This document shows positions 28,122 through 41,421 of a DNA stretch of 57,342 nucleotides, in pieces. A program made the position numbers and the translations under genes. The notes beneath the pieces are model-generated. The model ran no database searches. It was not told the DNA's origin and saw only the letters and a list, made by a program, of their open reading frames with translations. Within the stretch, counting starts at the first letter, position 1, and every line of letters begins with the position of its first letter. Origin of the DNA: Verrucomicrobiales bacterium (GTDB lineage: Bacteria > Verrucomicrobiota > Verrucomicrobiia > Verrucomicrobiales > V1-33); NCBI GenBank assembly GCA_043757865.1, contig JAYVOP010000235.1:1-57342 (forward strand), read 5' to 3'.

Positions 28122-29324
28122 TCAAGAAATCGGGGTGGGTGAACAGAATTGGGAGACCCAAACGGGCAGAGAAATGGCTGCAATAAGAGCCGCAAAAATC
28201 CCCGCTGTGGGAGCGAATCCGAGGGCGGTCGTCAGCAGGCCAGCCAGCGGATAGGTCAGCCCCCAGCCCGCATGACTCAGGGCAAAATGAGCCGCGTAAA
28301 CATGAGATCGCTCCGCGCCATCGCTATTGGCTGCGAGCAGCTCGCTGCCCCGGATGCCTAGAATACTGTAACTCATGCCGATGAACCACCACGCGATGCA
28401 GAGCGTGATGAACTGAGGCATTACCGCCACGGAGATCAAGGCTGCCAGCATGACAGGAGCACAAGCGGTGACGGAAACATTCCTCCAGCATGGTGGAAAT
28501 TTGCCGTAGAGTAATGCCGCACAGACAGAGCCAATTCCAAACGCTGCCATTACCCAAGCGTAGTCGGAATCGCTCCGGTGGAGGTCGTTTTTGACGAAAT
28601 CCACCGTGGCCACTATCACGAATGCCCCGCCAATGCTCGTCTGAAATGCGAGGAAAAGAGACTCCCGCAATGGTGCCCGCTGGAACATAGCGGCCAGACC
28701 GTGCCGCACCGACGTAGGGGCTTTCTTCTCCGCCGTGGTGACTTCAATCGCCAGACGCGGCAGCCCAAAAAGCAAGGCGGCACTGGCCAAGAAGGTGAAG
28801 GCATCCACCACGAAATTTCCTCGAAACCCCACCATCGCGATGACCAATGCCGCCAACGATGGCCCGAGGATGTTAGCGGCATCGTAGGCCACGGAGCCGA
28901 CCGCCAAGGCTTTGGGATATTGCTCTGCGCTGACCACGCCGGGGATCACGGCACGATAAATGGGCGTGAAGATGGCGGAGCCAAAATTTAACAACACCGC
29001 CAGCCCATAAATCTGCCAAACGGAATCCGCAAAAAAGAACCCGATCACCACCGCTGCGCGCATCAGGTCCGCAGCCACCATCAACCGGCGTGCCCCGTAG
29101 TGATCCGCTAATTTCCCTGCCCACGGAGAGCAGAAGACAATGACCACAATGCGAATGGCCAACGTAATGCCCAACACTGTGGACGCCGAAGCGCCTACCA
29201 ACTGATGCGCCAACAACCCCAACGCCAGCGAGGAAAGACCACTGCCCACTAGGCTCAACGCATGAGCCCAGAAAAGCTGCTGAAACGCCCGATGACGCCA
29301 GAGTGAGTGAGATGGAGTATTCAT
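28122..29324 (-). CDS. nreB: MFS transporter, NreB-like (nickel/cobalt resistance type)
   Basis: About 12 TM segments. ..F..LF.A....LVG.GL...ALGLLA..L.G..A..VLG..LAI, AIFTP...A.IP, AYD....GP.LAA and R...YAA.FALSHA.W..TYPLAG match NreB-type sequences; located in a metal efflux operon. Confidence 0.75.
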   Translation of the reverse strand: MNTPSHSLWRHRAFQQLFWAHALSLVGSGLSSLALGLLAHQLVGASASTVLGITLAIRIVVIVFCSPWAGKLADHYGARRLMVAADLMRAAVVIGFFFADSVWQIYGLAVLLNFGSAIFTPIYRAVIPGVVSAEQYPKALAVGSVAYDAANILGPSLAALVIAMVGFRGNFVVDAFTFLASAALLFGLPRLAIEVTTAEKKAPTSVRHGLAAMFQRAPLRESLFLAFQTSIGGAFVIVATVDFVKNDLHRSDSDYAWVMAAFGIGSVCAALLYGKFPPCWRNVSVTACAPVMLAALISVAVMPQFITLCIAWWFIGMSYSILGIRGSELLAANSDGAERSHVYAAHFALSHAGWGLTYPLAGLLTTALGFAPTAGIFAALIAAISLPVWVSQFCSPTPIS

Positions 29325-32300
29325 GGTGCGGCTGTGGTTAGGGGTGTGGCAGTGCGTTCTTTTTCAAACCAATCATACAACAACGGCAACAGCACTAACG
29401 TGAGGAAGGTGGAACTGAGGATACCGCCGATGACTACGGTGGCCAGCGGGCGTTGCACTTCAGCTCCGGCTCCAGTGGCGATGGCCATGGGGACGAAGCC
29501 GAGGCTCGCAACGAGTGCTGTCATAAGCACGGGGCGCAGGCGGGTGAGGGAGCCTTCTAGCACGGCCTCGCGCTTGCTGCGGCCTTCTTCGCGCAGTTGA
29601 TTGAAGTAGGAAATCATCATCAGGCCATTGAGCACAGCCACACCACTCAACGCAATAAATCCCACCGCCGCTGTAATGCTGAAAGGCATGTCCCGCAGCC
29701 ACAGCGCGCCCACTCCTCCAGTAACGGCTAGAGGGATGCCGCTGTAAATGATAGCCGCCTGCCGCAAGCTACTGAAGGCGATGAAGATAAGGATGAAGAT
29801 GAGCACTAGGGCCGTGGGCACCACGATGGCAAGCCGTTGACGCGCCTGTTGCAGGTTTTCAAACTGGCCTCCGAATTGCACGATGTAGCCTTCCGGCAAT
29901 TTCACTTCGGCTTTGATGCGGGCCTCAGCTTCGTTGACGTAGCCTTCCACATCGCGTCCGCCCAGGTTCACCATCAGCGCAGCGCGGCGTTGGCCGTCGT
30001 CGCGTTGGATGGGTTCCACCACTTTGATGGTTTTGAAATCTACCACTTTGCCAAATGGCACCATGCCATGTTCGCCCACACGCAGGGGCAGTTGCTTGAT
30101 TTGCTCATCGTCGGCTCGCAGGGATTCGGGCATTTTGACGAGGATGTCGCGACGGCGGTTGCCATCGTAGGCGGCACCCACCACTTCACCGGCTAGGGCG
30201 GCGGTTACGGCTCCATTTACTTCAGCGCCTTGCAGGTTGTAGCGTTGCAGGGCATCGCGCTTGGCCGTGATTTCTAGCTGTGGAGTGCGACCATCGGTCT
30301 CAAATTCGACTTGAGCCGCACCGGGCGTGGATTCTAAAATACCTTTGACTTGCTCGCCCAGTTTTTCCAATTCGTCGTAGTCGTTACCATAAATTTTCAC
30401 AGCAATCTCGGCCTTGGTGCCCTCCAGCATTTCGTTGAATCGCATCTCGATGGGTTGCGCAAAAAGAATGTCGTATTCCGGATTCAGTTTCTTGAGTTCC
30501 GCTTCGATCTGTTCGCGCAGTTCCGCTTTATTGGCCGGGCGTCCGGCGGTTTTGGGCCATTCGTCCATGGGCTTGTAAAAGATGTAAACATCGCTCTCGT
30601 TGGGCGGCATGGGATCGGAGGCGATGGCGCTGGTGCCAATCCGTGAGAAGATGCGGGTAATCTCGGGAAATGCTTTCAATAACATGTTTTCCACTTCAAT
30701 GTCCGTCTTCAATGACTCCTCCATGCTCATGCCCACGGGCTTGTAGAGCATGGAGGTGATGGAGCCCTCATCCAACTTGGGCACAAAGTTAGCGCCCAAG
30801 TGATTGAATAACATCACCGACCCCGCAAACAGCGCGACGGCTCCGGCAGCCACGAGCCAGCGCAGCCTGAGGGCGAGGTGCAGCACTGGTTCATAGACGC
30901 TCTTGGCGGCACGGATGGCGAAATTATCTTTCTCCGAAATCTTCCCGCGCAAGAGGAACGAACAGAGCACGGGCATGAGGGTGAGCGAAAGCAGCAATGC
31001 CCCGGTGAGCGCTAGCATAACGGTGATGGCCATGGGGTGAAACATTTTACCCTCAATGCCAGTGAGAGCGAGGATGGGAATGTAAACAATGGTGATGATG
31101 AGCACGCCAAAGAACATAGGACTGCCCACCTGTTTGCTAGCGGCTAGCACGGTGTGGTTCCGTTCCTCGAATGTGAGCGTGCGCCCGAGTTGGTGTTGTT
31201 TATGAGCCAACTGGCGGACGATATTTTCCACCATGACCACCGCACCATCGATAATGAGTCCGAAGTCCACCGCCCCCAGTGACATCAGGTTTCCCGACAC
31301 TCCACCTTTGAGCATTCCGGTGAGGGCGAACAGAAACGAGAGTGGAATGGCACATGCGACAATGAGGGCCGCGCGGACATTTCCTAGCAAGAGCATAAGC
31401 ACAGCGACGACGAGCACCGCACCTTCAAAGAGGTTTTTTTTCACAGTGCCAGTGGTGCGATCGATCAAAAGCGAACGGTCATACTGGCCTTGGATTTCCA
31501 CGCCTTCTGGGAGCTTGGTTTGAATCTCCGCGATACGCTTTTTGACCCGCCCTGCCACCTCGCGGCTGTTCTCGCCAGCGAGCATGAGAGTGGTGCCGAT
31601 AATGGTTTCTTGGCCATTGAGCGTGGCCGCTCCGGTGCGGAATTTGGTGCCGATCTTTACCTCCGCCACATCCTTTACTAGCAACGGCTGCACGGCGGAG
31701 CCGAACTTGATAGGGAGATTTGCTAACTCCTCCACGGTGGTGACACGGGTGATGGCGCGGATGGTGAGTTGCTCCCCCTCACGGCTGACGATGCCCCCGC
31801 CTGCGTTCTCCACGTTCTTGGCTATGAGTGCAGACAGCTCGCTAAAGGTCAGCCCCGCGTTGGTCAGAGCCTCTGGCTTGGGCTCGATGATGAACTGTTT
31901 CACATAGCCGCCCGTGCCGTTGATCTCAGCAATCCCAGGCACGGTGCGCAAAAGTGGCTTAATGACGTATTCCTGAATTTCGCTGAGTTCGATGAGTTGA
32001 TCCAGCTCCTGCGCAGGCTTGTGCTGGGCATCGGCACGGTAGCTAACGGAATAGTAAAAAATTTCACCCAAGCCAGTGCTGATGGGAGCTAGCTTTGGCG
32101 AGGTGCCGGGAGGAAGCTGATCCAGCACGCCTTGCAGGCGCTCTGCCACCAGTTGTCGGCAGCGATAGATGTCCGCGTCATCATCAAAATCTAGCGTGAC
32201 CTGCGAGAGGCCAAACTTTGTCAGCGATCTCATTTCCCGCACGCCCGGCAGGCCCGCTAGTTCCATTTCAATGGGGCGGGTGACGAGTTTTTCGGATTCT

Positions 32301-32476
32301 TCCCCAGCCAGCGCGGCCACCTCGGTATTGATCTGCACCTGCACGCCAGTAATGTCCGGCACGGCATCGATGGGCAGATGCACCGCCGACCACAGGCCCG
32401 CTCCTAGCAGCCCTACCGCCATCAGCAGCACTAGCGCACGCTGGCGGAGTGAAAATTCAAGGATCTGGTTAATCAT
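29321..32476 (-). CDS. czcA: CusA/CzcA family heavy-metal efflux RND transporter (CzcA-like)
   Basis: LPIDAVPDIT.VQVQINT, RS.TKFGLSQVT, LAPISTGLGEI, NLMSLGAVDFGLIIDGAVVMVEN, RLRPVLMTALVASLGFVPMA..TG.GAEVQRPLATVVIGG motifs; 1051 aa. Confidence 0.93.
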   Translation of the reverse strand: MINQILEFSLRQRALVLLMAVGLLGAGLWSAVHLPIDAVPDITGVQVQINTEVAALAGEESEKLVTRPIEMELAGLPGVREMRSLTKFGLSQVTLDFDDDADIYRCRQLVAERLQGVLDQLPPGTSPKLAPISTGLGEIFYYSVSYRADAQHKPAQELDQLIELSEIQEYVIKPLLRTVPGIAEINGTGGYVKQFIIEPKPEALTNAGLTFSELSALIAKNVENAGGGIVSREGEQLTIRAITRVTTVEELANLPIKFGSAVQPLLVKDVAEVKIGTKFRTGAATLNGQETIIGTTLMLAGENSREVAGRVKKRIAEIQTKLPEGVEIQGQYDRSLLIDRTTGTVKKNLFEGAVLVVAVLMLLLGNVRAALIVACAIPLSFLFALTGMLKGGVSGNLMSLGAVDFGLIIDGAVVMVENIVRQLAHKQHQLGRTLTFEERNHTVLAASKQVGSPMFFGVLIITIVYIPILALTGIEGKMFHPMAITVMLALTGALLLSLTLMPVLCSFLLRGKISEKDNFAIRAAKSVYEPVLHLALRLRWLVAAGAVALFAGSVMLFNHLGANFVPKLDEGSITSMLYKPVGMSMEESLKTDIEVENMLLKAFPEITRIFSRIGTSAIASDPMPPNESDVYIFYKPMDEWPKTAGRPANKAELREQIEAELKKLNPEYDILFAQPIEMRFNEMLEGTKAEIAVKIYGNDYDELEKLGEQVKGILESTPGAAQVEFETDGRTPQLEITAKRDALQRYNLQGAEVNGAVTAALAGEVVGAAYDGNRRRDILVKMPESLRADDEQIKQLPLRVGEHGMVPFGKVVDFKTIKVVEPIQRDDGQRRAALMVNLGGRDVEGYVNEAEARIKAEVKLPEGYIVQFGGQFENLQQARQRLAIVVPTALVLIFILIFIAFSSLRQAAIIYSGIPLAVTGGVGALWLRDMPFSITAAVGFIALSGVAVLNGLMMISYFNQLREEGRSKREAVLEGSLTRLRPVLMTALVASLGFVPMAIATGAGAEVQRPLATVVIGGILSSTFLTLVLLPLLYDWFEKERTATPLTTAAP

Positions 32477-33717
32477 TTCGCGAAGGCCTTTCCGGTTAGC
32501 AATTCTAGTTGTTGGCGATGTTCAAACGCATCCGCTTGAGCCCCGAACATGGCGTCCAGCGCATCCAGGTAGGACCGCTGCATCTCCATATAGATGGCCA
32601 CTGGCACCGCACCTAGCCGATAGTGGCGATCTGCCAATTCTGCGGCCTCACGGAATCGGGCCACGGTGTCCGGCTGCCAGGCGGAGATTTCCTCTAGCAG
32701 CTTACGGTAGGCAGCGGCACGGGTGGCTACTTCGCGCTCCAACTCACGTTTGGTCATGCCCAGGGCGGCCTCCGCCTGCATCTGGCGGGCTTTGGCGGCA
32801 TCTATGTTGCCCTCATTTTTATGCCACAGCGGCAACGGAATGGACAAGCTGAGGCCGATCTCCGTCTGCTTATCACTGGCCTTTTCCCCCGCTACATACG
32901 GAGCCACGGTCACGCTGGGCATCCGTTCGTTTTCCGTCAGGCGCACCGCAAACCCTTGTTGGTTCAGCTCCACCACACGCCGCCGCACTGCGAAATTTTG
33001 TTTCCACGCAGAGGTTAGAAGCACGCCGTCGTTGGGCGCGGGCGGCAGGGCCACCTTGGGCGTTGCGATCTCCACAGCGCTGTCCAATGGCTGGCCGGTG
33101 AGTTGATTCAACTCCACCCGCGCCTTCTGCAACTCCTGCGCGGCTTGGCTGGCGCGACGCGTGAGAGACAACACGTTGGCCTCCAAAATGCGGGCCTCTA
33201 ACTGCGGCGTTGGCCCGGTGTCATCGCGTTGCACCAGCACGGAGAGCACTTCTTGGAACCGCTTGGCTGCGGCCTTGGCAGCAGTTTCTTTTTCTTGCGA
33301 GGCAGCAACCAGAAACGCCAGTGACCGCACCTTGGCCGAGAGCGCTGTTTTGAATTCATCCAGCCCCAGTTCTGCCAGATCAATCTGGCGATCCGCCACC
33401 GCCTTGCGCAACGCCAACCGCCCCGGCCACTCGAATATCTGCGAAACCGAAACGGACCACGCGGCCCCATTGCCCAGCCCCGCGCCATTCAAGTCCCGCA
33501 CCCGCTTGCCGCCGCCCTGCACGGCCACATCGGGATTGGCGATTTGCCCAGCGGTCTTGCGACCGCCTCTGGCAGCAGCGATCTCAGCCTCGAAGTAGGC
33601 GATCTCAGGATTTTTGGCGACCGCCTGAGCGGCCAGAGCATCGAGCGATAACGGCTCGGCACTCAACGATGCCATGGAAATAATTAGCGAAAAGGTAGTA
33701 AGAAATTGGAAATTCAT
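32473..33717 (-). CDS. TolC-family outer membrane factor (CzcC-like)
   Basis: A...NPEI, ANP.V, EWPGRLALR, LSIPLPLWHKNEGNI..A.A and Y.LG......Y...QR motifs. Probable start is ATG 33717 (MNFQFLTT signal peptide), not 33894. Confidence 0.9.
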   Translation of the reverse strand: MNFQFLTTFSLIISMASLSAEPLSLDALAAQAVAKNPEIAYFEAEIAAARGGRKTAGQIANPDVAVQGGGKRVRDLNGAGLGNGAAWSVSVSQIFEWPGRLALRKAVADRQIDLAELGLDEFKTALSAKVRSLAFLVAASQEKETAAKAAAKRFQEVLSVLVQRDDTGPTPQLEARILEANVLSLTRRASQAAQELQKARVELNQLTGQPLDSAVEIATPKVALPPAPNDGVLLTSAWKQNFAVRRRVVELNQQGFAVRLTENERMPSVTVAPYVAGEKASDKQTEIGLSLSIPLPLWHKNEGNIDAAKARQMQAEAALGMTKRELEREVATRAAAYRKLLEEISAWQPDTVARFREAAELADRHYRLGAVPVAIYMEMQRSYLDALDAMFGAQADAFEHRQQLELLTGKAFAK

Positions 33718-33839: not shown

Positions 33840-34346
33840 CTATACCATCATCACCGTGGCCCGCAGGATGCGGTGCCAAGCCAACGGATCCCAAGGCGGC
33901 GGACGGCCCGCCACGCCACGGTCAATGCCCTCACCCATGCAAGTGAGCGGCATTTCATTGCTATGAATATACGAAACCTCTACGCACGCGGCCACAGTGA
34001 AGACCACTGCCGTCGGCTCCCAAGAAGATAATTTTGAACTGCCCAACGCCAAAACATGATCAGGGTGAGCATGCACAGTGGAGAGACTGGCAATGATCGT
34101 GGAATCCTCCTCGTCATCATCCTCTGCGTCGTGATCAGAGTCTTCGTGAAAATGATCCTTCACTGAATGGCTCAGCGTCACCACCAAAAAATCCCCATTT
34201 GCCACCACACGCATCGCGTGGTGATGCCCATCATGATCCCACATTCCTGCCCCGCCCTGCATCAACCACTGGACACCCAGCAGTTGCGAACAAATCGCCA
34301 TGAAGACGACGAGGCAGGTTAGCAATTTTTTGATAGGAGAAAACAT
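33840..34346 (-). CDS. His/acidic-rich membrane-targeted leader protein upstream of efflux operon 1
   Basis: N-terminal TM, HDGHHH, HFHEDSDHDAEDDDEED and HAHPDH, ending GRPPPW...LRATVMMV. Confidence 0.7.
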   Translation of the reverse strand: MFSPIKKLLTCLVVFMAICSQLLGVQWLMQGGAGMWDHDGHHHAMRVVANGDFLVVTLSHSVKDHFHEDSDHDAEDDDEEDSTIIASLSTVHAHPDHVLALGSSKLSSWEPTAVVFTVAACVEVSYIHSNEMPLTCMGEGIDRGVAGRPPPWDPLAWHRILRATVMMV

Positions 34347-34523: not shown

Positions 34524-35078
34524 TTACTTCTGCTTGGCATCCTTAGCATTCTTGCTGTGATCGTGGCCATCCCCTTCTTTGTGCTCTTCTTCATCTCCGT
34601 GGGCACAGGTGCAGTTGTATTCTTGCAGGCTGCAAGTCGGGCATTTGCTGAGGTTGAGGTTGAACTTTTCATTCACAGCCTTGGCCTTGGCGTCGGTTTT
34701 GATCTGAACCACGATGGGATAGTCGTTGCCCTCGGGGATGACTTTATCGGACATCAATTTGTCGCCCTCCTTGGTGAAAGTAAGTTTGGTAGGGTTGCTA
34801 CGGTCGCCTAGAGTCACGCTGATGACTTGGGCGGCTGGTGCCACTACTTTGTTGTCGTCGTCCACAAATCGGATTTCGATTTTCTTGTCTTTGGTGACGA
34901 GAAATTCGACGTGCGGCTCGACGGCGGTGATGAGACGGCCACCAGTGGGTCCGGCTTTCTTAGCAGCATGTTCGTGATCGTGCTTTTCTTCTTTGGCCGG
35001 GGCTTTTTTATTTTGGGCGTAGCTGGGGGTGAGGCTCAGTGCGAAGCCGAGCAGGGTGAGGGCGAATATGGTTTTCAT
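34524..35078 (-). CDS. secreted His-rich putative metal-binding protein
   Basis: Signal peptide, HDHEH followed by GPTGGRL...PHVE, C-terminal CPTC...CTCAH...HKEGDGHDH; last gene of efflux operon 2. Confidence 0.78.
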   Translation of the reverse strand: MKTIFALTLLGFALSLTPSYAQNKKAPAKEEKHDHEHAAKKAGPTGGRLITAVEPHVEFLVTKDKKIEIRFVDDDNKVVAPAAQVISVTLGDRSNPTKLTFTKEGDKLMSDKVIPEGNDYPIVVQIKTDAKAKAVNEKFNLNLSKCPTCSLQEYNCTCAHGDEEEHKEGDGHDHSKNAKDAKQK

Positions 35079-35183: not shown

Positions 35184-38100
35184 TTAATGTGAGGCAGCGG
35201 ATTGGAGTTCGATGGATTTCGCAGCGGCTTTTCTGCCGAAGGTGAAGAAGACCGTGGGCGTAACGCCTAGGCCGAGGAGCGTGCTAGTGATGAGGCCACC
35301 GACGATGACAACAGCCACGGGGTGCAGAATTTCCTTGCCCGGCTGGTCTGCTGCTAGCACCAGCGGGATCAGGCCGATGCCTGCGCTGAGGGCGGTCATG
35401 AGGACGGGCACGAGCCGTTCTTTGGTGCCGCGGATGACCATGGCTTTAGTGAATTGCTCTCCTTCGTGCTGCATGAGATGCAGGTAGTGAGAAATGAGCA
35501 TGATACTGTTCCGCGCAGCCACGCCAGCCACGGCAATGAATCCGACGAGCGTGGCAATGCTGATATTGCTGAGCTTCCAGTAGGTCAGGGCTAGGCCACC
35601 CACGAGCGCCAGGGGAATATCGCAGAGCACTTGCATGGCAAAAAACGGGGTGCGGAAATAGCCATAGAGCAGGAAAGCGATGATGATGAAGACCACTGCG
35701 CTGAGGAGGGCGATGCGCTCTGAAGCCTCCTTCTGGGCTTGGAATTCACCTTCGTAACTGATGAAGTAGCCTTCTGGCAATTTCACTTTCTCAGCGACCT
35801 TGGCTTGCAGAATTTTCACGCTTTCCCCCACGTCCCGGTTGGTGGGTTTGATGGCCACGGCAAACCGTCGTTGACTGTTTTCTCGGTTGATCACGTTGGG
35901 GCCTTTGGCCTCGCGCACGTCCGCCACTTGCCCGACGAAGACGCGCTGGCCTGCGCCATTTTCGATGGGTAAGGAGGCAATTTTTTCTGGTGAATCCCGC
36001 CATTCCACTGGCAATCGCAGCACCAGATTGACCGTCTTTTGTCCATCTCTGAGTTCGGCCACTTCCTTCCCGCCGATCAAAGCGGAAAGCTGTTCATTCA
36101 AATGCCCAGGCGCGATGCCGTAGGCTTTGGCGCGGGCGCGATCCGCCTCGATGCGGAGCTGTGGGATAGACGACTGCTGATCCAGCTTGGCGTCCTCGAA
36201 GCCCGGAACAGTCTTGGCTACGGCCTGTACTTCCGTGCCGATCTGGCGGAGCTTATCCAAATCCGGTCCGAAAATTTTTACAGCCACTGGCGCGGAAACA
36301 CCGCTGAGCATGTGACCGATGCGATCTGCTAGCGGGCCAGTTAGCACACTGAACGTGCCCGGCACGGTTTTGATCTTGGCCCGGATCTCATCCAGAATTT
36401 CTTTACGCCCCCGCTGCTTGCTGCGCTGCGCGCCATCCTCCCCACGGAAATCCACATCAAACTCCGCCGTGGATACCGGCACCACATGGTCCCCACGCTC
36501 TGCCCTTCCTAACCTGCGGCCTACTTGCTTCACTTCCGGGATGGAGAGAATGAGTTGCTCCACCACATCACAGATTTTGTTCATTTCCTCCAGCGATGTG
36601 CCGGGCGCTGAGGTGGTGGAAATGAGGGCAGTTTCTTCTTTAAATGCTGGGAGGAAATCTTTTCCCATCTTCGGATACAGGCTGAATGCAGCGATCACCA
36701 ACCCCACTACGGCGGTCAGCAAAATCAGAGGTTGATCCAAGCCAAAACGCAGCATGACATGCTCCAAAACCCATTTCATCCCACGCGTGATGAAGCCATC
36801 TTTATGCTCCTTACCATGCTTAGGATTCAGCAAAAACGAGCACAACACAGGTATGGCCGCCAAGGAAACCAAGAACGATGCGATCATGGAAATGATGGTC
36901 GCTAGGGCAATGGGGGCGAAAAGTTTGCCCTCCACGCCACTCAATCCTAACAGCGGCAGAAACACCAAAATAATCAGCAGCGTGGCGTAGAGAATGGAAT
37001 TTCTCACCTCACCCGACGCTTGGGCGATGACTTGTAATTTAGGGTGCGGAGTGGCTAGGGCAGCGTTTTCCAGCAATCTGCGATAGACATTTTCTACATC
37101 CACGATAGCGTCGTCCACTACCATGCCGATGGCCACGGCCAGCCCTCCCAGGGTCATCGAATTAACCGAAATACCCAAGTATTTAAACGTCAGCAAGGTC
37201 ATGGCAAAACTCAACGGCATGGCCATGAGAGTGATGAACGTGGTGCGAAAATTCAGCAGAAATAGAAAGATGACGATGGTCACCATGATGGCACCGTCAC
37301 GGATGGCTTCTTTTAAATTATTGATGGCATGGTCGATAAAATCTTTCTGCTGAAAGAGCAGCACGGTCTCAACGCCTGGCGGCAGGGTCGCTTTTAATCC
37401 GTCCAAGGCCGCTTTGATTTGTTCCGTGAGCTTGGTGGTATCGAATCCCGGAGCCTTGGTGATGGACATGATCACTCCGGGCGTACCATTGATGCTAGCA
37501 TCTCCCCGCATGGGCTCTATGCCCCACTCAACTTTAGCGACATCGCTGATGGCAATGGGGCGGTCATTCACTTTTTTGATCACCACCTCGGCTATGTCAT
37601 CTAGCTGCACGGTCATGGCCAGATTCCGCACCATGATTTCCGTGGAACCCGTGTTGATGAAGCCGCCCGTGGTGGTGCTAGCGGCTTCTTGAGCGGCTTT
37701 TTCGAGTTGCTCATAGGACACGCCGTTGGCCTGCATCCGGTAGGGATCGGCTTGGATTTCGATCTGCTTCACGCCGCCGCCCATGTTGAGAATTTCGGCT
37801 ATTCCGGAAATGCTTTGGAGCCGCCGCCGCACCGTCCAATCCGCGAGCGAGCGAATCTCGCGTGGGGGCATTTTGCCATCCGTGCTGCGAATGCCAACGA
37901 GCAGTATTTCCCCCATCAGGGAGGCCACTGGCGTCATAAATGGAGCCACGCCTTTTGGCAATTGCTCTCGGACTTCTTGCATTCGTTCCTGCACCAAGGT
38001 GCGAGCTTTGTAAATGTCCGTGCCCCACGCAAATTCTGCAAACACTAACGACAAGGCGACATCTGAATTCGAGCGAATCCGCGTGAGTCCACCCACCCCC

Positions 38101-38321
38101 ATCAGGGCACTCTCAATCGGCTGCGTGACGCGCGCTTCCGTCTCCTCTGGGGCCAGCCCAGGCGCTTCCGTGAGGATGATGACCGTTGGTTTTGTCAAAT
38201 CAGGCAGCACTTCTACTGGCAATTCCTTCACGGCCTGAAAGCCCATCACCATCAGCAGGATGGAGAGGCCAATGATAATTGCTCGGTTGGCCAGCGACCA
38301 TTTAATGAGTTTGTTGAGCAT
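35184..38321 (-). CDS. CusA/CzcA family heavy-metal efflux RND transporter (second, different subfamily)
   Basis: LPVEVLPDLT.PTV.I.TEAPGLAPEE.E, NSMTLGGLAVAIGMVVDDAIVDVEN, ERL.PVLMTAL.AG.GL.PL and GKEIL.PVAVVIVGGL.TST motifs; 1045 aa. Confidence 0.93.
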   Translation of the reverse strand: MLNKLIKWSLANRAIIIGLSILLMVMGFQAVKELPVEVLPDLTKPTVIILTEAPGLAPEETEARVTQPIESALMGVGGLTRIRSNSDVALSLVFAEFAWGTDIYKARTLVQERMQEVREQLPKGVAPFMTPVASLMGEILLVGIRSTDGKMPPREIRSLADWTVRRRLQSISGIAEILNMGGGVKQIEIQADPYRMQANGVSYEQLEKAAQEAASTTTGGFINTGSTEIMVRNLAMTVQLDDIAEVVIKKVNDRPIAISDVAKVEWGIEPMRGDASINGTPGVIMSITKAPGFDTTKLTEQIKAALDGLKATLPPGVETVLLFQQKDFIDHAINNLKEAIRDGAIMVTIVIFLFLLNFRTTFITLMAMPLSFAMTLLTFKYLGISVNSMTLGGLAVAIGMVVDDAIVDVENVYRRLLENAALATPHPKLQVIAQASGEVRNSILYATLLIILVFLPLLGLSGVEGKLFAPIALATIISMIASFLVSLAAIPVLCSFLLNPKHGKEHKDGFITRGMKWVLEHVMLRFGLDQPLILLTAVVGLVIAAFSLYPKMGKDFLPAFKEETALISTTSAPGTSLEEMNKICDVVEQLILSIPEVKQVGRRLGRAERGDHVVPVSTAEFDVDFRGEDGAQRSKQRGRKEILDEIRAKIKTVPGTFSVLTGPLADRIGHMLSGVSAPVAVKIFGPDLDKLRQIGTEVQAVAKTVPGFEDAKLDQQSSIPQLRIEADRARAKAYGIAPGHLNEQLSALIGGKEVAELRDGQKTVNLVLRLPVEWRDSPEKIASLPIENGAGQRVFVGQVADVREAKGPNVINRENSQRRFAVAIKPTNRDVGESVKILQAKVAEKVKLPEGYFISYEGEFQAQKEASERIALLSAVVFIIIAFLLYGYFRTPFFAMQVLCDIPLALVGGLALTYWKLSNISIATLVGFIAVAGVAARNSIMLISHYLHLMQHEGEQFTKAMVIRGTKERLVPVLMTALSAGIGLIPLVLAADQPGKEILHPVAVVIVGGLITSTLLGLGVTPTVFFTFGRKAAAKSIELQSAASH

Positions 38322-38324
38322 GGG

Positions 38325-39455
38325 CTACGCTGCCTCCTTGGTGGATATTTTGGACTGCGTGCCTTTTAGCAACGTCGCCACCAAGAGCGCTGCTAACACA
38401 CCGCTGATGATCTTCCAGAGCATTCCGCCACCTTCTTCGTGGTCGTGCTCTGCACCGTTGTGTTCCGCCGCTTTGGCTTGCTTTTGGGAGGCCGTGAGTT
38501 CAGATCCATCCTCGTTATGTTCATGCCCATGCGCTGCATCCAGTGCGGCTTTTAGCGACACGCTGCCGCCACCAGCAAAGGCTAGCGAATACGCCCCCTT
38601 GGTCACTACCTCATCACCCGGCAGCAGCCCATTGGTGATTTCTACAAATCGATCGTTCGTCTGCCCCACCTCCACCATGGTCTTGATGAAGGCATGTTTT
38701 AGTTCAAAATGTTTGACATAAACGAACCGATTGGCCGCCTCTCCTTGCAGCGCCATCCGCGGCACAGCCTGCACCGCGTCTCGTTTGCTTAGCACGATGG
38801 AGAACTCCGCTCTCATGCCAGGGCGGATGGTTAGGTTAGGATTCGGCAGTTTGAAAATGGCATCTATCGTGCCACTCTCGCGATCCGCTTCCGTGCCAAA
38901 ACGCATCAGCTCGCCCTCGAAATTTTCCTCCGGCAGAGCGATCACTTTGATGTGGGCCACGGTGCCCGGTTTCATGCGTCCCACTTGTTGTTCCGGGACG
39001 CGCGCGATGGCGAAGACAGCGCTCAGATCCGTGATTTCCAAGAGCGTGGCCCCAGGTTCCAGGGGCTCGCCCAGCGCCACATTTCCCTTGGTCAGTAGCC
39101 CGCCTGCAGCCGCCTTGAGCGAGATCGTAGGCGGCGGATCACCCGGCTGCCGACTCTCTAAGCGGGCCACCTCCGCGCCCGCCTCCACCTTGTCTCCTAA
39201 CGCGACTTTGAGTTCCACGATGCGGCCAGGGATGCGGCTACTCACGCCACTTCGACGCGCTGGATCGGCTTCGATCCGGCCTAGTGAGAAAATGGATTCT
39301 TCGAAATCAGCATCTTCAACTTCCACAGTTTCGATGCGCAAATTTTTCACGCCAGTGGCATCAAGCACCACAGTATTGGCAGCACTTTTGGCGTCGCCTG
39401 CCGCCAACGAAAGATGATAGGGCGCGAGCGCGAGAATGAGCAAAAGACGTTTCAT
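38325..39455 (-). CDS. RND periplasmic adaptor (CzcB/CusB-like) lacking the alpha-hairpin, with His-rich and TM C-terminus
   Basis: SSRIPGRIVEL.V.LGD.V..G..VA.LES joined via RQPGDPPP to ISLKA...G......V.LGE.LEPG..L.EI.DL. Also GT.A.RESGTI, L.RPGMRAE, VP..A, G.....F.EI..GL.PGD.VVT.GAY.L, then HGHEH..HDHE and a TM helix. Confidence 0.9.
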   Translation of the reverse strand: MKRLLLILALAPYHLSLAAGDAKSAANTVVLDATGVKNLRIETVEVEDADFEESIFSLGRIEADPARRSGVSSRIPGRIVELKVALGDKVEAGAEVARLESRQPGDPPPTISLKAAAGGLLTKGNVALGEPLEPGATLLEITDLSAVFAIARVPEQQVGRMKPGTVAHIKVIALPEENFEGELMRFGTEADRESGTIDAIFKLPNPNLTIRPGMRAEFSIVLSKRDAVQAVPRMALQGEAANRFVYVKHFELKHAFIKTMVEVGQTNDRFVEITNGLLPGDEVVTKGAYSLAFAGGGSVSLKAALDAAHGHEHNEDGSELTASQKQAKAAEHNGAEHDHEEGGGMLWKIISGVLAALLVATLLKGTQSKISTKEAA

Positions 39456-39491: not shown

Positions 39492-40709
39492 TTAGCGCCC
39501 CATGGCGGCGTTGTAGCGGATGCGGGCCAGATGATAGGCACGCAGCGCGTCCACTTTGGCTTGTTCCAGAGCTAGGCGTTTTTCCCTGGACCGCAGCACA
39601 TCGGTGAGTTGGGAGCCGGGCTGCCCGTTCTTGTAATTCAGGAGAAATTTCTCTTCGAGTTCCAGCGCTTTGGGCAGCAGCTTGTTGGTTGTTTGATCCA
39701 GAATCCGCTGGGCAGCAGTCATTTCGCCTAGGGCAGCAGCGGCTTCTGCGCGGATGTTAGCGGCTAGCGCTTCCGCTTCTTTTCCCGCACGAGCTGCGGT
39801 GGCTTCTGCTTCCACAATCTTGCCTTCGTTCTTGTTCCAAAACGGAAGCGGCAGGGAAAATTTGATGCCAATGAAACCATCCCTTTGCAGCCCATCGGGA
39901 GCATCTTCGGAACGATCTAGCTCCGCTGTCAGGCCGATCCCAGCGTCCTGCCATTTATTGGCCTTGGCCAGCGCTATCCCCTGTTGGGCCGCCTCCGTCC
40001 GCGACTGGGCCGCACAATAATCAGGCCGTGCTGCTAGGTCGGGATTGGCATCACGGGGCAAGGTCGCCTCTGGCAGACTCCCGGTAAATTCCGCCGACTG
40101 TGTAGCCGCCAGCCCCATGAGAGGTCGGGCTTCTCCTAGTAACACTGCCTGCTCAGATTCCAATTGCAGTAAATCGAGCGATAGCTGCTGCGCCTCCAAT
40201 TCAAACTGAGCGGCCTCCAATGATGATCCCTCGCCAACTGCGGCTATTTTCGAAGCAGATGCAGCTAGCTCCTTGCTAGTAGCAATGAGCTTTTCCTTGA
40301 GCGCCCGGTTCTCACGCAAGCTCAGAATTTTGACTCCCACCATGCGCACAGCAGTCGCCAATTTCCGTTCTGCCGCCTGCACCTCCGCCGTGGCGGCGGC
40401 TAGTTCCGCCTGCCCGACGGCCTTTTCAATGCGCAGTCGATTGGTAAATGGAAAGCGCTGCATGAAGCCCACCCCAAACGAGAACTCACGACCTCTCACA
40501 TTGGGTTTGAGTTCGGATTCCAGTTCAGGATTAGACCGCCTCCCAGCCTGCATCAGCCGCCCACGCGCTTCCTCGATACTGAACCGCGCAGCGGCTAGAT
40601 CGGGATTGTGCTGGAGCGCGTAAGATGCAGCAGAGTCGAGCGTGAAGGGCTCGGCCCGGCCAGCCACGGCAAGGCATAGAAAGGATATACAAAGGGTCAG
40701 ACGAAACAT
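39492..40709 (-). CDS. TolC-family outer membrane factor
   Basis: Signal peptide, AL.HNPDL.AAR..I..A.GR..QAG...NPEL, L..RPD..AA and FSLPLPFWNKNEG.I.EA.A motifs. Confidence 0.92.
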   Translation of the reverse strand: MFRLTLCISFLCLAVAGRAEPFTLDSAASYALQHNPDLAAARFSIEEARGRLMQAGRRSNPELESELKPNVRGREFSFGVGFMQRFPFTNRLRIEKAVGQAELAAATAEVQAAERKLATAVRMVGVKILSLRENRALKEKLIATSKELAASASKIAAVGEGSSLEAAQFELEAQQLSLDLLQLESEQAVLLGEARPLMGLAATQSAEFTGSLPEATLPRDANPDLAARPDYCAAQSRTEAAQQGIALAKANKWQDAGIGLTAELDRSEDAPDGLQRDGFIGIKFSLPLPFWNKNEGKIVEAEATAARAGKEAEALAANIRAEAAAALGEMTAAQRILDQTTNKLLPKALELEEKFLLNYKNGQPGSQLTDVLRSREKRLALEQAKVDALRAYHLARIRYNAAMGR

Positions 40710-40820
40710 GAAAATGAAGTGGTTGGGTGATGGAATGTCGGCACGGCCAAGCCGTGAATTTTCGACATCAGGAAATCGGCATCACCCTTTCCGGGTGATA
40801 AGGCCGTGCTTTCACATCGC

Positions 40821-41285
40821 TCAAACCAACATCACGATCGTCTGTGCCACGAGCTGTGACATCGGCGGGCTCCCATATTCAGGAGGCTCCAGCAGACCAA
40901 TGCACGGGCACTGTAATGCCAGCATCTCACTGAAATCTGGCATTTCATAAGTTACGGGCAAATCGAACAAGGCCGGCGGGGGCAGCGACAACGCGGGCGG
41001 GAAACTGGTGACGACCAGCGATTTTCTCAGCTCAGTATGCTTGTGATCATCGTGCCCACCTTGAAGTGGGGTTTGCTGGCTCTCGCCTGCGGAAGTGGCA
41101 ACATTTCCACCAAATCTGCACTCATGGGCATCGTGGGAATGACACTCCGAAGCAGCACAATCCGCCTTCTCCACCCTCTCGCCCGTGCATCCGCAAAGAA
41201 AACCAGCCCTCAAGCCCACAACCTGTCCCAGCCCGACCGCAATCACGGTCAGACAAATCAACAAGCATTTGACGATTTTGGGCAT
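40821..41285 (-). CDS. Cys/His-rich membrane-targeted leader protein upstream of efflux operon 2
   Basis: Probable start ATG 41285. N-terminal TM, CGC..C...CHSHDAHEC, HDDHKH, Pro-rich segment, ending GSPP...AQTIVMLV. Confidence 0.7.
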   Translation of the reverse strand: MPKIVKCLLICLTVIAVGLGQVVGLRAGFLCGCTGERVEKADCAASECHSHDAHECRFGGNVATSAGESQQTPLQGGHDDHKHTELRKSLVVTSFPPALSLPPPALFDLPVTYEMPDFSEMLALQCPCIGLLEPPEYGSPPMSQLVAQTIVMLV

Positions 41286-41421
41286 TTTCGGAATGAGGCC
41301 ATCACAGTGGACAAATTGCAAGACGAATTAAAAGCACAAGTCGCCCTAGCGGCCTCCGACTCCGCGCGCCTACGCCACTCTGAACTTGCGTGGGCGCTGC
41401 CATCCGCCACGGTGCGCGCTC

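Follow-up and report, generated by a model that had tools for sequence, protein, structure and literature searches.

A small gene on contig JAYVOP010000235.1 of the Verrucomicrobiales bacterium assembly GCA_043757865.1 heads a heavy-metal efflux operon, and its sequence and surroundings suggest that it may be a metal-sensing upstream gene of the CutF-like kind, acting in cis to gate translation of the downstream pump genes. We place the probability of this reading at about 0.5. The gene, here called leader 2, lies in a window of 57,342 nucleotides (the whole stretch of DNA analyzed, positions 1 to 57,342 of the contig; Table 1). It is separated by 111 nt from the gene of an outer-membrane efflux protein (OEP; gene start at 40709), which is followed by genes for a membrane-fusion protein (MFP) and a pump of the resistance-nodulation-division (RND) type. 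A second small gene in the window, leader 1, heads another efflux operon; the two transcription units are referred to as operon 2 and operon 1, respectively. An initial annotation of the DNA had proposed both genes as leaders of one regulatory family tuned to different metals, and its description of the leader 2 open reading frame (ORF), i.e., translation, ligand set, tail and the 111-nt gap, was found to be accurate. The term leader calls for a qualification, as the product is not a short peptide but a conserved protein of 154 aa.

CutF of Rhodobacter capsulatus is a 118-aa protein that has a Sec signal and a CxxxC motif and ends in PEPEGPPPRL; its translation is required in cis, and extracytoplasmic copper binding makes the stall at PPP last longer and unfolds the stem-loop that covers the cutO ribosome-binding site (PMC9973294; bioRxiv 10.1101/2025.02.05.636593). 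The CutF-like class was defined by four features, namely a protein of <150 aa, a signal peptide, a PP among the last 15 residues and a neighboring gene on the same strand; OEP genes are the commonest neighbor, and His-only clusters are found beside Ni/Co genes (PMC9973294). Experimentally backed precedents for metal-sensing upstream ORFs are CutF, CruR and CopL (PMC9973294, bioRxiv 10.1101/2025.02.05.636593, PMC9426467). Measured against this class, leader 2 is marginally too long at 154 aa. It carries PP at positions -15/-14 from its end and a Cys/His motif of conserved, putative ligands (C31, C33, C43, C48, H49, H81, H83), and the OEP gene follows after the 111-nt gap, with MFP and RND genes next, in the same arrangement in all loci read.

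The translation of leader 2 reads MPKIVKCLLICLTVIAVGLGQVVGL...CGCTGERVEKADCAASECHSHDAHEC...GGHDDHKH...EYGSPPMSQLVAQTIVMLV*, beginning with MPKIVKCLLICLTVIAVGLGQVVGL and ending with PPEYGSPPMSQLVAQTIVMLV. A basic n-region (K3, K6) precedes a 15-residue hydrophobic stretch, and the hydrophobic helix closes with Q21 and then G24 (QxxG); a cleaved signal and an uncleaved anchor are not distinguished by these features. The CGC motif, C43, C48-H49 and a few window-specific His/Cys residues come next. Between these and H78-DD-H81-K-H83 lies a variable middle of acidic/polar character, and a stretch punctuated by prolines leads on to the terminal block PPEYGSPPMSQLVAQTIVMLV, in which the PP motif is P140-P141. 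Neither Pfam nor NCBIfam yielded a match to the protein, and an Rfam scan at the locus gave none either.

Judged by its conservation, leader 2 is a real gene. A word-indexed search retrieved ten relatives (E 1e-23 to 5e-44, 38-54% identity), in which G24, GCTG, C43, C48-H49 and H83 are invariant and the C-terminus PPEYGSPPMPxLVA[QR]TIVMLV is almost so. An exhaustive profile search of 1.84 billion representatives recovered 177 proteins at E<=1e-3, counted at the 50% identity level, and 59 at <=1e-10. Most have 130-180 aa; full-length members mostly measure about 131-160 aa, many of them <=150 aa, and some gene calls reach 222 aa. Residues were counted over 148 members for the N-terminal and ligand positions and over 155 for the C-terminus, and none of the 148 had a credible Pfam match. 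The N-terminal fixed points are Q21 (145/148) and G24 (148/148). Among the ligands, C31 is kept in 146, C33 in 133, C43 in 144, C48 in 123 and H49 in 129 of the 148 members, and in the HxH motif H81 is present in 100 and H83 in every one. Named genomes with the family are Verrucomicrobiales metagenome-assembled genomes, some labeled Akkermansia; the family is sparse in the phylum, with 9 of 401 genomes, mostly of the same order.

The best-conserved part of the protein is its last ~22 residues (PPxxGxPPxPxLVA[RQ]TxVMLV), the register of which relative to the stop codon never shifts. Proline stands at -15 in 108 and at -14 in 107 of the 155 C-termini, V at -9 in 111, A at -8 in 107 and V at -4 in 134, with R/H/Q/K at -7 and T/S/C at -6. 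The last residue is V, I or L in all 155. No proline falls within the last 7 residues and only 2 within the last 11. Lack of conservation of the C-terminal pattern among homologs had been named at the outset as an observation that would speak against a regulatory leader; the pattern is conserved. Synonymous differences lie beneath these residues (Ala as GCA, GCG or GCT; Thr as ACG, ACA, ACT or ACC), and selection therefore acts on the protein. The distance from H83 to the C-terminus has a median of 71 residues (interquartile range 70-72), whereas that from C48/H49 to H83 ranges from 17 to 35. Length change is thus absorbed by the variable low-complexity middle, while the spacing between the last ligand and the stop codon is kept ruler-like. 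The small protein is the fastest-evolving product of the gene cassette (35-54% identity, compared with 56-73% for OEP, 50-76% for MFP and 74-90% for RND), and its two ends stay fixed despite this.

The same protein features bear on an alternative, namely that leader 2 encodes a stable, membrane-anchored periplasmic metal-binding protein acting in trans as a chaperone, a pump accessory subunit or a sensor for another partner. The C-terminal tail would then be a docking or degradation motif recognized at its free carboxyl terminus, and the spacer RNA would serve ordinary coupling, processing or mRNA stability. A product of 154 aa with seven conserved Cys/His ligands would suit this role. The AlphaFold2 (AF2) model (pLDDT 74, pTM 0.39) comprises the N-terminal helix, two short strands (residues 25-30 and 84-88) that directly flank CxC (31-33) and HxH (81-83), and then mostly coil with a short terminal helix; strands adjoining both ligand motifs likewise favor a folded metal-binding protein, as do the further His-rich periplasmic parts of the cassette (the adaptor C-terminus and a 184-aa protein). 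PDZ-type proteins read C-terminal signals such as V/I/L ends, the kind of end that is always present here. Nevertheless, no similarity to CusF-type periplasmic metallochaperones, CzcI-type proteins or any other Pfam or NCBIfam family was detected, and the AF2 model has no fold match in the PDB (best E 7.2). A folded domain for which mostly coil is predicted would hardly be expected to combine a poorly conserved middle of variable length with a 70-72-residue ruler, and a protein acting in trans requires neither strict adjacency across a structured spacer of ~100 nt nor pairing between its stop and the next start. We regard this alternative as rather unlikely.

The kinship of the two leaders in the window proved to be real but remote. 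Pairwise BLASTP of leader 1 against leader 2 was not significant (E 0.12), and the profile-profile alignment (hhalign) that had been recommended as a check aligned the first 27-30 residues (probabilities 31% and 75%) and left the remainder unaligned. When the 148-member family hidden Markov model (HMM) was run against the 448 six-frame ORFs of the window, leader 2 scored E 2.7e-47 and leader 1 was the sole other match (E 2.7e-6, 22 bits, end-to-end); the next best ORF had E 0.33. Leader 1 has Q21 and G24 in common with leader 2, carries H92-A-H94 at 74 residues from its end and terminates in RPPPW...LRATVMMV. Both leaders thus place HxH ~71-74 residues before the C-terminus and have a Pro motif ahead of ...ATVMMV (leader 1) or ...QTIVMLV (leader 2). 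Leader 1 resembles the 'WP..L.H.I.LRV' branch of the family, and its two homologs likewise precede an OEP gene. The proposed common family is upheld by the profile match and by identical placement ahead of an OEP gene. In sequence, leader 1 is a member that has lost the Cys ligands and gained His/Asp/Glu.

The nonsignificant BLASTP comparison and the restriction of the hhalign match to 27-30 N-terminal residues could be taken to mean that the ORF similarity and the hairpins of the spacer are accidents of a GC-rich region and that the ORF is not a functional gene. We consider chance exceedingly improbable, as it is refuted by 177 representatives with invariant residues, synonymous variation and conserved synteny, as well as by the profile match of leader 1 and the covariation of the hairpins.

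The two hairpins of the spacer, H1 and H2, were located exactly where the initial annotation had placed them (atcaccc/gggtgat at 40781-40799; atgtcg-cacggc/gccgtg-cgacat at 40735-40768, ending 25 nt before the ATG). The window gap folds better than its shuffles (z -2.6; 1 of 200 shuffles equally good). Fifteen spacers align with a mean column identity of 64%. Covariation was tested on a four-helix description comprising the outer and inner stems of H1 and H2: pairing was possible in 74.5% of cells (shuffles, 67%; slid partners, 34-52%), and the covariation score was 0.273 (shuffles, 0.157, with 0/500 as high; slid partners, <=0.177). Both sides had changed in 13 of 22 pairs. A model-based spacer alignment gave similar figures (scores overall 0.27-0.29). 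For H1, changes on both sides were seen in 5/6 inner and 4/4 outer pairs, and its sequence varies while pairing is kept by compensation (CACCC/GGGTG, CATCC/GGATG, CGCCC/GGGCG, TTTCC/GGAAA). The outer stem of H2 shows compensatory changes (T-A to A-T in locus L014, G-C to A-T in L010; homologous loci are numbered with the prefix L), and its inner stem is 89% paired. By these comparisons the gap hairpins are conserved with compensatory changes. A covariance model of the spacer found a single copy in the whole genome and no match behind leader 1 or in distant members, and therefore the H1/H2 motif is specific to the close subfamily and only the general layout recurs. A further hairpin, TGCC-N9-GGCA, is located within the M-P-x-L-V-A codons (window 40840-40865, minus strand); 14 of the 15 sequences keep it, and two exchanges between C-G and U-A occur in it. 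It may be a mere consequence of the conserved amino acids.

A hairpin followed by a U-rich stretch also brings transcriptional control into consideration. H1 and its tail could act as an intrinsic attenuator, or the G-poor, C-rich leader could be a Rho entry site as in CruR, with the position of the ribosome at the end of the small ORF deciding whether RNA polymerase reads through into the pump genes. CruR (Bp2923, Bordetella pertussis) is a 145-aa DUF2946 protein in which the spacing of CXXC and RAPP is conserved at 45 residues and which controls Rho-dependent termination (PMC9426467). H1 is GC-rich and kept by compensation, with TTTCC, TTTTCC or TTTTT next in most loci; the stretch after H2 is nearly G-free, and alternative CGGC/GCCG pairings in the window (cacggcc / gccg / cacggct / ggccgtg) resemble a 1-2-3-4 attenuator. 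A terminator scan, however, does not call H1, the U tracts are short (3-5 nt), a G-poor stretch of ~35 nt is short for a rut site, and the alternative pairing comes from the window sequence. Control of this kind is, in our view, unlikely.

Translational gating is favored by a predicted pairing between the end of the small ORF and the start of the OEP gene. In minimum-free-energy (MFE) folds of the RNA spanning the end of the small ORF and the start of the OEP gene, a long-range helix, here called the clamp, encloses H1 and H2 in 12 of 12 nonredundant close loci. In this helix, the G-poor leader immediately before the OEP ATG is paired with the last codons and the stop codon of the small ORF. 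It was tested per sequence, as RNAalifold on a wider MAFFT alignment lost most helices via misalignment. The arms co-vary: GCGGGTT/AACCCGC in L008, GCTGGTT/AACCAGC in L012, GCTGGTG/CACCAGC in L024, TTGGTTTGAG/CTCAAACCAA in L006 and GTTTGAG/CTCAAAC in L017. The final codon before TGA is GTT or ATT in 13/15 loci, and the two GTG exceptions face CAC in the partner arm. Cognate arms paired at -14.6 kcal/mol and noncognate arms at -12.4 kcal/mol (permutation p 0.002). Compared with dinucleotide shuffles, the clamp reached a mean z of -1.6 over 16 loci, and strong clamps were found in sequence-unrelated members (L004, z -4.0; L025, -4.2; L046, -3.4).

The end of the leader and the gap were folded with and without a ribosome footprint, as had been proposed. 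Keeping the footprint of a ribosome at the stop codon unpaired raised the unpaired probability of the OEP start from 0.32-0.50 to 0.55-0.92 in the 12 close loci; for the start region in the window (40707-40734) it was 0.42 when free and 0.84 with the ribosome. At 11 of the 13 gene starts inspected in the window, we found no Shine-Dalgarno sequence and a G-poor, C/A/U-rich leader, while the RND2 and RND1 starts have GGAGG-/GGAAAGG-like stretches. Initiation in the source organism thus seems to be largely independent of Shine-Dalgarno sequences, with an unpaired leader as its likely determinant. As window genes generally lack a Shine-Dalgarno sequence and have G-poor leaders, accessibility of the OEP leader is a plausible control point.

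We propose the following course of events. The leader 2 chain would be exported co-translationally. According to glycosylation-mapping and force-profile work, ~70 residues span the ribosomal exit tunnel and the translocon, and with the ribosome at the last codons HxH would have just emerged. The emerged HxH would complete the Cys/His site, which would close on a metal ion. Metal binding, with the conserved tail and the Pro motif still inside the exit tunnel, would alter the tension on the growing chain. Altered tension would change the dwell of the ribosome at the ORF end, and a lingering ribosome would keep the stop-to-start pairing open and expose the OEP start, such that the pump is made when metal is present. 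That metal switches expression on is an assumption, based on CutF and on the fact that an efflux pump has to be induced. A more specific version, advanced tentatively and as a whole, is that the PPxP-LVA[RQ]TxVMLV-stop tail represents a new type of arrest peptide that holds the ribosome at the stop codon or the codons just before it, with the ~71-residue ruler timing the emergence of HxH from the translocon. Periplasmic Cys/His closure during translation would then set the dwell and hence the opening of the clamp over a start that has no Shine-Dalgarno sequence, in a self-contained mobile switch of which one genome has His/acidic and Cys/His versions on two pumps. A release-factor-2-specific arrest at an invariant TGA was considered and dropped, since relatives use TAA and leader 1 uses TAG.

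Several observations weigh against a CutF-like function of leader 2. The clamps of the window itself are no better than dinucleotide shuffles (leader 2, z -0.17; leader 1, +0.71), and base composition may account for most of the complementarity there, as Val/Met/Leu codons rich in G/U lie opposite a C/A-rich leader. A ribosome placed at the PP motif leaves the accessibility of the OEP start unchanged; because a ribosome paused there does not reach the clamp, a stall at the tail or the stop codon has to be postulated. In leader 2, 14-15 residues separate the PP motif from the stop, compared with 3-4 in CutF and CruR. The stop codon varies across the wider family (TGA, TAA, TAG), which leaves no release-factor-specific signal. 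A product of 154 aa is long for a leader, and with a moderately confident AF2 model it could be a stable protein. Membership in DUF2946 (PF11162) was rejected: neither leader matched, a whole-genome scan at E<=10 gave nothing at the locus, weak matches appeared in only 2 of the 148 family members (best E 0.08), and hhalign of the 148-member profile with five verrucomicrobial DUF2946 proteins gave a probability of 1.3%. The motif comparison was likewise negative, as members of the family carry CxC and PP at -15/-14 but lack RAPP, while the verrucomicrobial DUF2946 proteins compared end in ...ARAPPCMTV, ...PRAPPSYC and ...ARGPPETV.

The assumption that the two leaders respond to different metals was only weakly backed. 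ZneA/CzcA are the closest relatives of the RND pump of operon 1 (620 vs. 544 bits), which has a DFG...DGA...VEN motif. For the pump of operon 2, CusA is the closest solved relative (512 bits, vs. 475 bits for ZneA), and S, T and H replace the CusA methionine triad M573, M623 and M672. Assignment of operon 2 to Cu/Ag was rejected because the triad is absent; the pump, the TM4 motif of which is AIGMVVDDAIVDVEN, may belong to an uncharacterized heavy-metal RND subtype. The difference in closest pump relatives (ZneA/CzcA vs. CusA) gives the idea weak backing, while Cu/Ag is not assertable for operon 2. The split between hard/borderline and soft ligands in the two leaders is consistent with different metals.

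Table 1. Features of the leader 2 region and its surroundings in the window
Feature	Position (nt)	Strand	Remarks
Leader 2 ORF	40821-41285	-	154 aa; unannotated Cys/His family; residues coded by 41285-40824
Leader 2 N-terminal hydrophobic helix, residues 3-23	41217-41279	-	Signal peptide or membrane anchor; AF2 pLDDT >90
Leader 2 Cys/His ligand block, C31-G-C33...C43...C48-H49	41139-41195	-	
Leader 2 H81-K-H83 (HxH)	41037-41045	-	H83 lies 71 residues from the C-terminus
Leader 2 C-terminal conserved block, residues 134-154	40824-40886	-	PPEYGSPPMSQLVAQTIVMLV; Pro motif and 11-residue hydrophobic tail
Leader 2 stop codon	40821-40823	-	TGA
Proposed clamp, 5' arm	40821-40838	-	Last five codons and TGA
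Hairpin H1	40777-40806	-	Outer stem cggc/gccg, inner stem tcaccc/gggtga, then a short U-rich stretch
Hairpin H2	40735-40768	-	Outer stem atgtcg/cgacat, asymmetric internal loop, inner stem cacggc/gccgtg; conserved core ACGGCTTGGCCGTGCCGAC
Proposed clamp, 3' arm	40707-40734	-	G-poor, C/A-rich OEP leader and ATG; no Shine-Dalgarno sequence
OEP (TolC-like outer-membrane efflux protein), first pump gene	39492-40709	-	PF02321, E 4e-30
MFP (membrane-fusion adaptor, CusB/CzcB-like)	38325-39455	-	PF16576, E 2e-27
RND pump of the heavy-metal efflux (HME) type	35184-38321	-	PF00873
Exported His/Cys-rich protein closing the cassette	34524-35078	-	184 aa; no Pfam match
Leader 1	33840-34346	-	Distant, Cys-poor, His/Asp/Glu-rich family member; heads the OEP-RND-MFS operon

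OEP, MFP and RND genes follow the small gene in all loci read, with the His-rich protein next where the contig allows, and this synteny extends to family members as distant as E 1e-9 to 4e-6. Spacers measure 98-111 nt in 15 close loci and 99-122 nt in distant ones. In three loci the spacer is 263-265 nt long and carries a different insert (L015, 6460-6724; L021, 3463-3725; L022, 2810-3073), with the common core GTTGGAGT[CT]CCGCCTTTAGGCGGTTTCCAATATTCCGGAGA and long internal pairing; an inserted element or another kind of RNA may account for it. Pairing of the ORF end with the OEP start was still present in the MFE structures of these three loci. The adaptor C-terminus in operon 2 is His-rich. 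The exported protein closing the cassette has 160-184 aa and was found after the RND gene in every complete cassette (e.g., 12335-12823 in L001); it has HDHEH-type runs at its N- and C-termini and a CPTCS...Y.CTC.HG motif, and is 61-67% identical in L001, L012 and L014.

Cassettes were found beside genes for an RPA replication protein, ParA and Fic (L001, 1498-5896), for an integrase, a D5-type primase and HTH_17 (L006, 1-5647) and for IS66 TnpB (L008, 782-2667). These plasmid and integrative-element neighbors suggest that the cassette has spread horizontally as a unit. No linked two-component or MerR-type regulator was found beside these three cassettes. Operon 1 (window 28122-33717, minus strand) has the order OEP-RND-MFS (major facilitator superfamily) with overlapping stops and starts and without a membrane-fusion adaptor; absence of the adaptor is not a local deletion, because the same order is kept in GCA_031411295.1 (L004, 8706-14313). 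In L007 (3-2005), the small gene comes after a different RND gene and a His-rich protein, a tandem two-cassette order as in the window. About 60-100 nt upstream of the small ORF, seven loci (L001, L008, L009, L012, L016, L006, L010) share a loose TGTGAATA/GGGAATA/TGGAAC-like motif followed by a short palindrome (e.g., AGACGGAACACGTCT, TTGAACAAATTTGTTCAA), which could be a promoter/operator; the motif is not clear in the upstream region of the window itself (41286-41385).

Periplasmic metal sensing by a nascent exported chain has been shown experimentally only for a few proteobacterial DUF2946 proteins. If the proposed function is correct, a sequence-unrelated family would use the same logic, and the principle would have arisen or diverged well beyond DUF2946, here in another phylum, in a genome largely without Shine-Dalgarno sequences and in mobile pump cassettes without a transcription factor. 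The continued inducibility of such cassettes after horizontal transfer would then have an explanation as well. Through the 70-72-residue spacing and the tail locked to the stop codon, force- or metal-dependent translational arrest is directly and cheaply accessible, and two divergent leaders on two pumps in one genome form a natural system for swapping specificity.

As in the CutF class, the family consists of small first genes of metal operons with a putative N-terminal export signal, a Cys/His motif predicted to face the outside of the cytoplasm and a Pro-rich motif within the last 15 residues. As for CutF itself, a same-strand gene follows ~100 nt on, and RNA pairing, here predicted in silico, would mask its start and be opened by a ribosome at the ORF end. 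The ligands differ, however, with CxC...C....CH...HxH in leader 2 in place of CxxxC, and the PP motif at -15/-14 is followed by an 11-residue hydrophobic tail, whereas the PPP of CutF lies three residues from the end. The leader 2 spacer has three parts, the closing pairing and two hairpins, without a Shine-Dalgarno sequence, while CutF has one stem-loop over its Shine-Dalgarno sequence. The family sits in Verrucomicrobiota, a phylum not mentioned in the description of the CutF-like class (PMC9973294).

CruR is comparable as an upstream ORF of ~145 aa in which the spacing between a metal motif and an arrest-type motif near the C-terminus is conserved and which is followed by a long structured or C-rich intergenic region (162 nt in CruR); it regulates a downstream outer-membrane gene in cis. 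The ruler between H83 and the stop (interquartile range 70-72) parallels its conserved CXXC-RAPP spacing (PMC9426467). In contrast to CruR, where CXXC and RAPP are 45 residues apart, the leader 2 family keeps 70-72 residues from HxH to the stop and has no RAPP. CruR works through Rho termination on an importer that is switched off by copper, whereas in the leader 2 family an exporter is expected to be switched on.

With the classical secretion-monitoring arrest peptides SecM, MifM and VemP, and with TnaC, the family would share a conserved C-terminal segment (~17-22 residues) positioned relative to the stall site proposed here, an N-terminal targeting signal that couples arrest to translocation force, and a stalled ribosome that opens RNA hiding the next start. 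Unlike these arrest peptides, to which it has no sequence similarity, its proposed input is periplasmic metal and not the activity of the export machinery, and arrest itself is putative. Taken together, the comparisons indicate that the family matches the CutF-like class in architecture while being unrelated by sequence, and is a new, sequence-independent variant with a credible, putative function.

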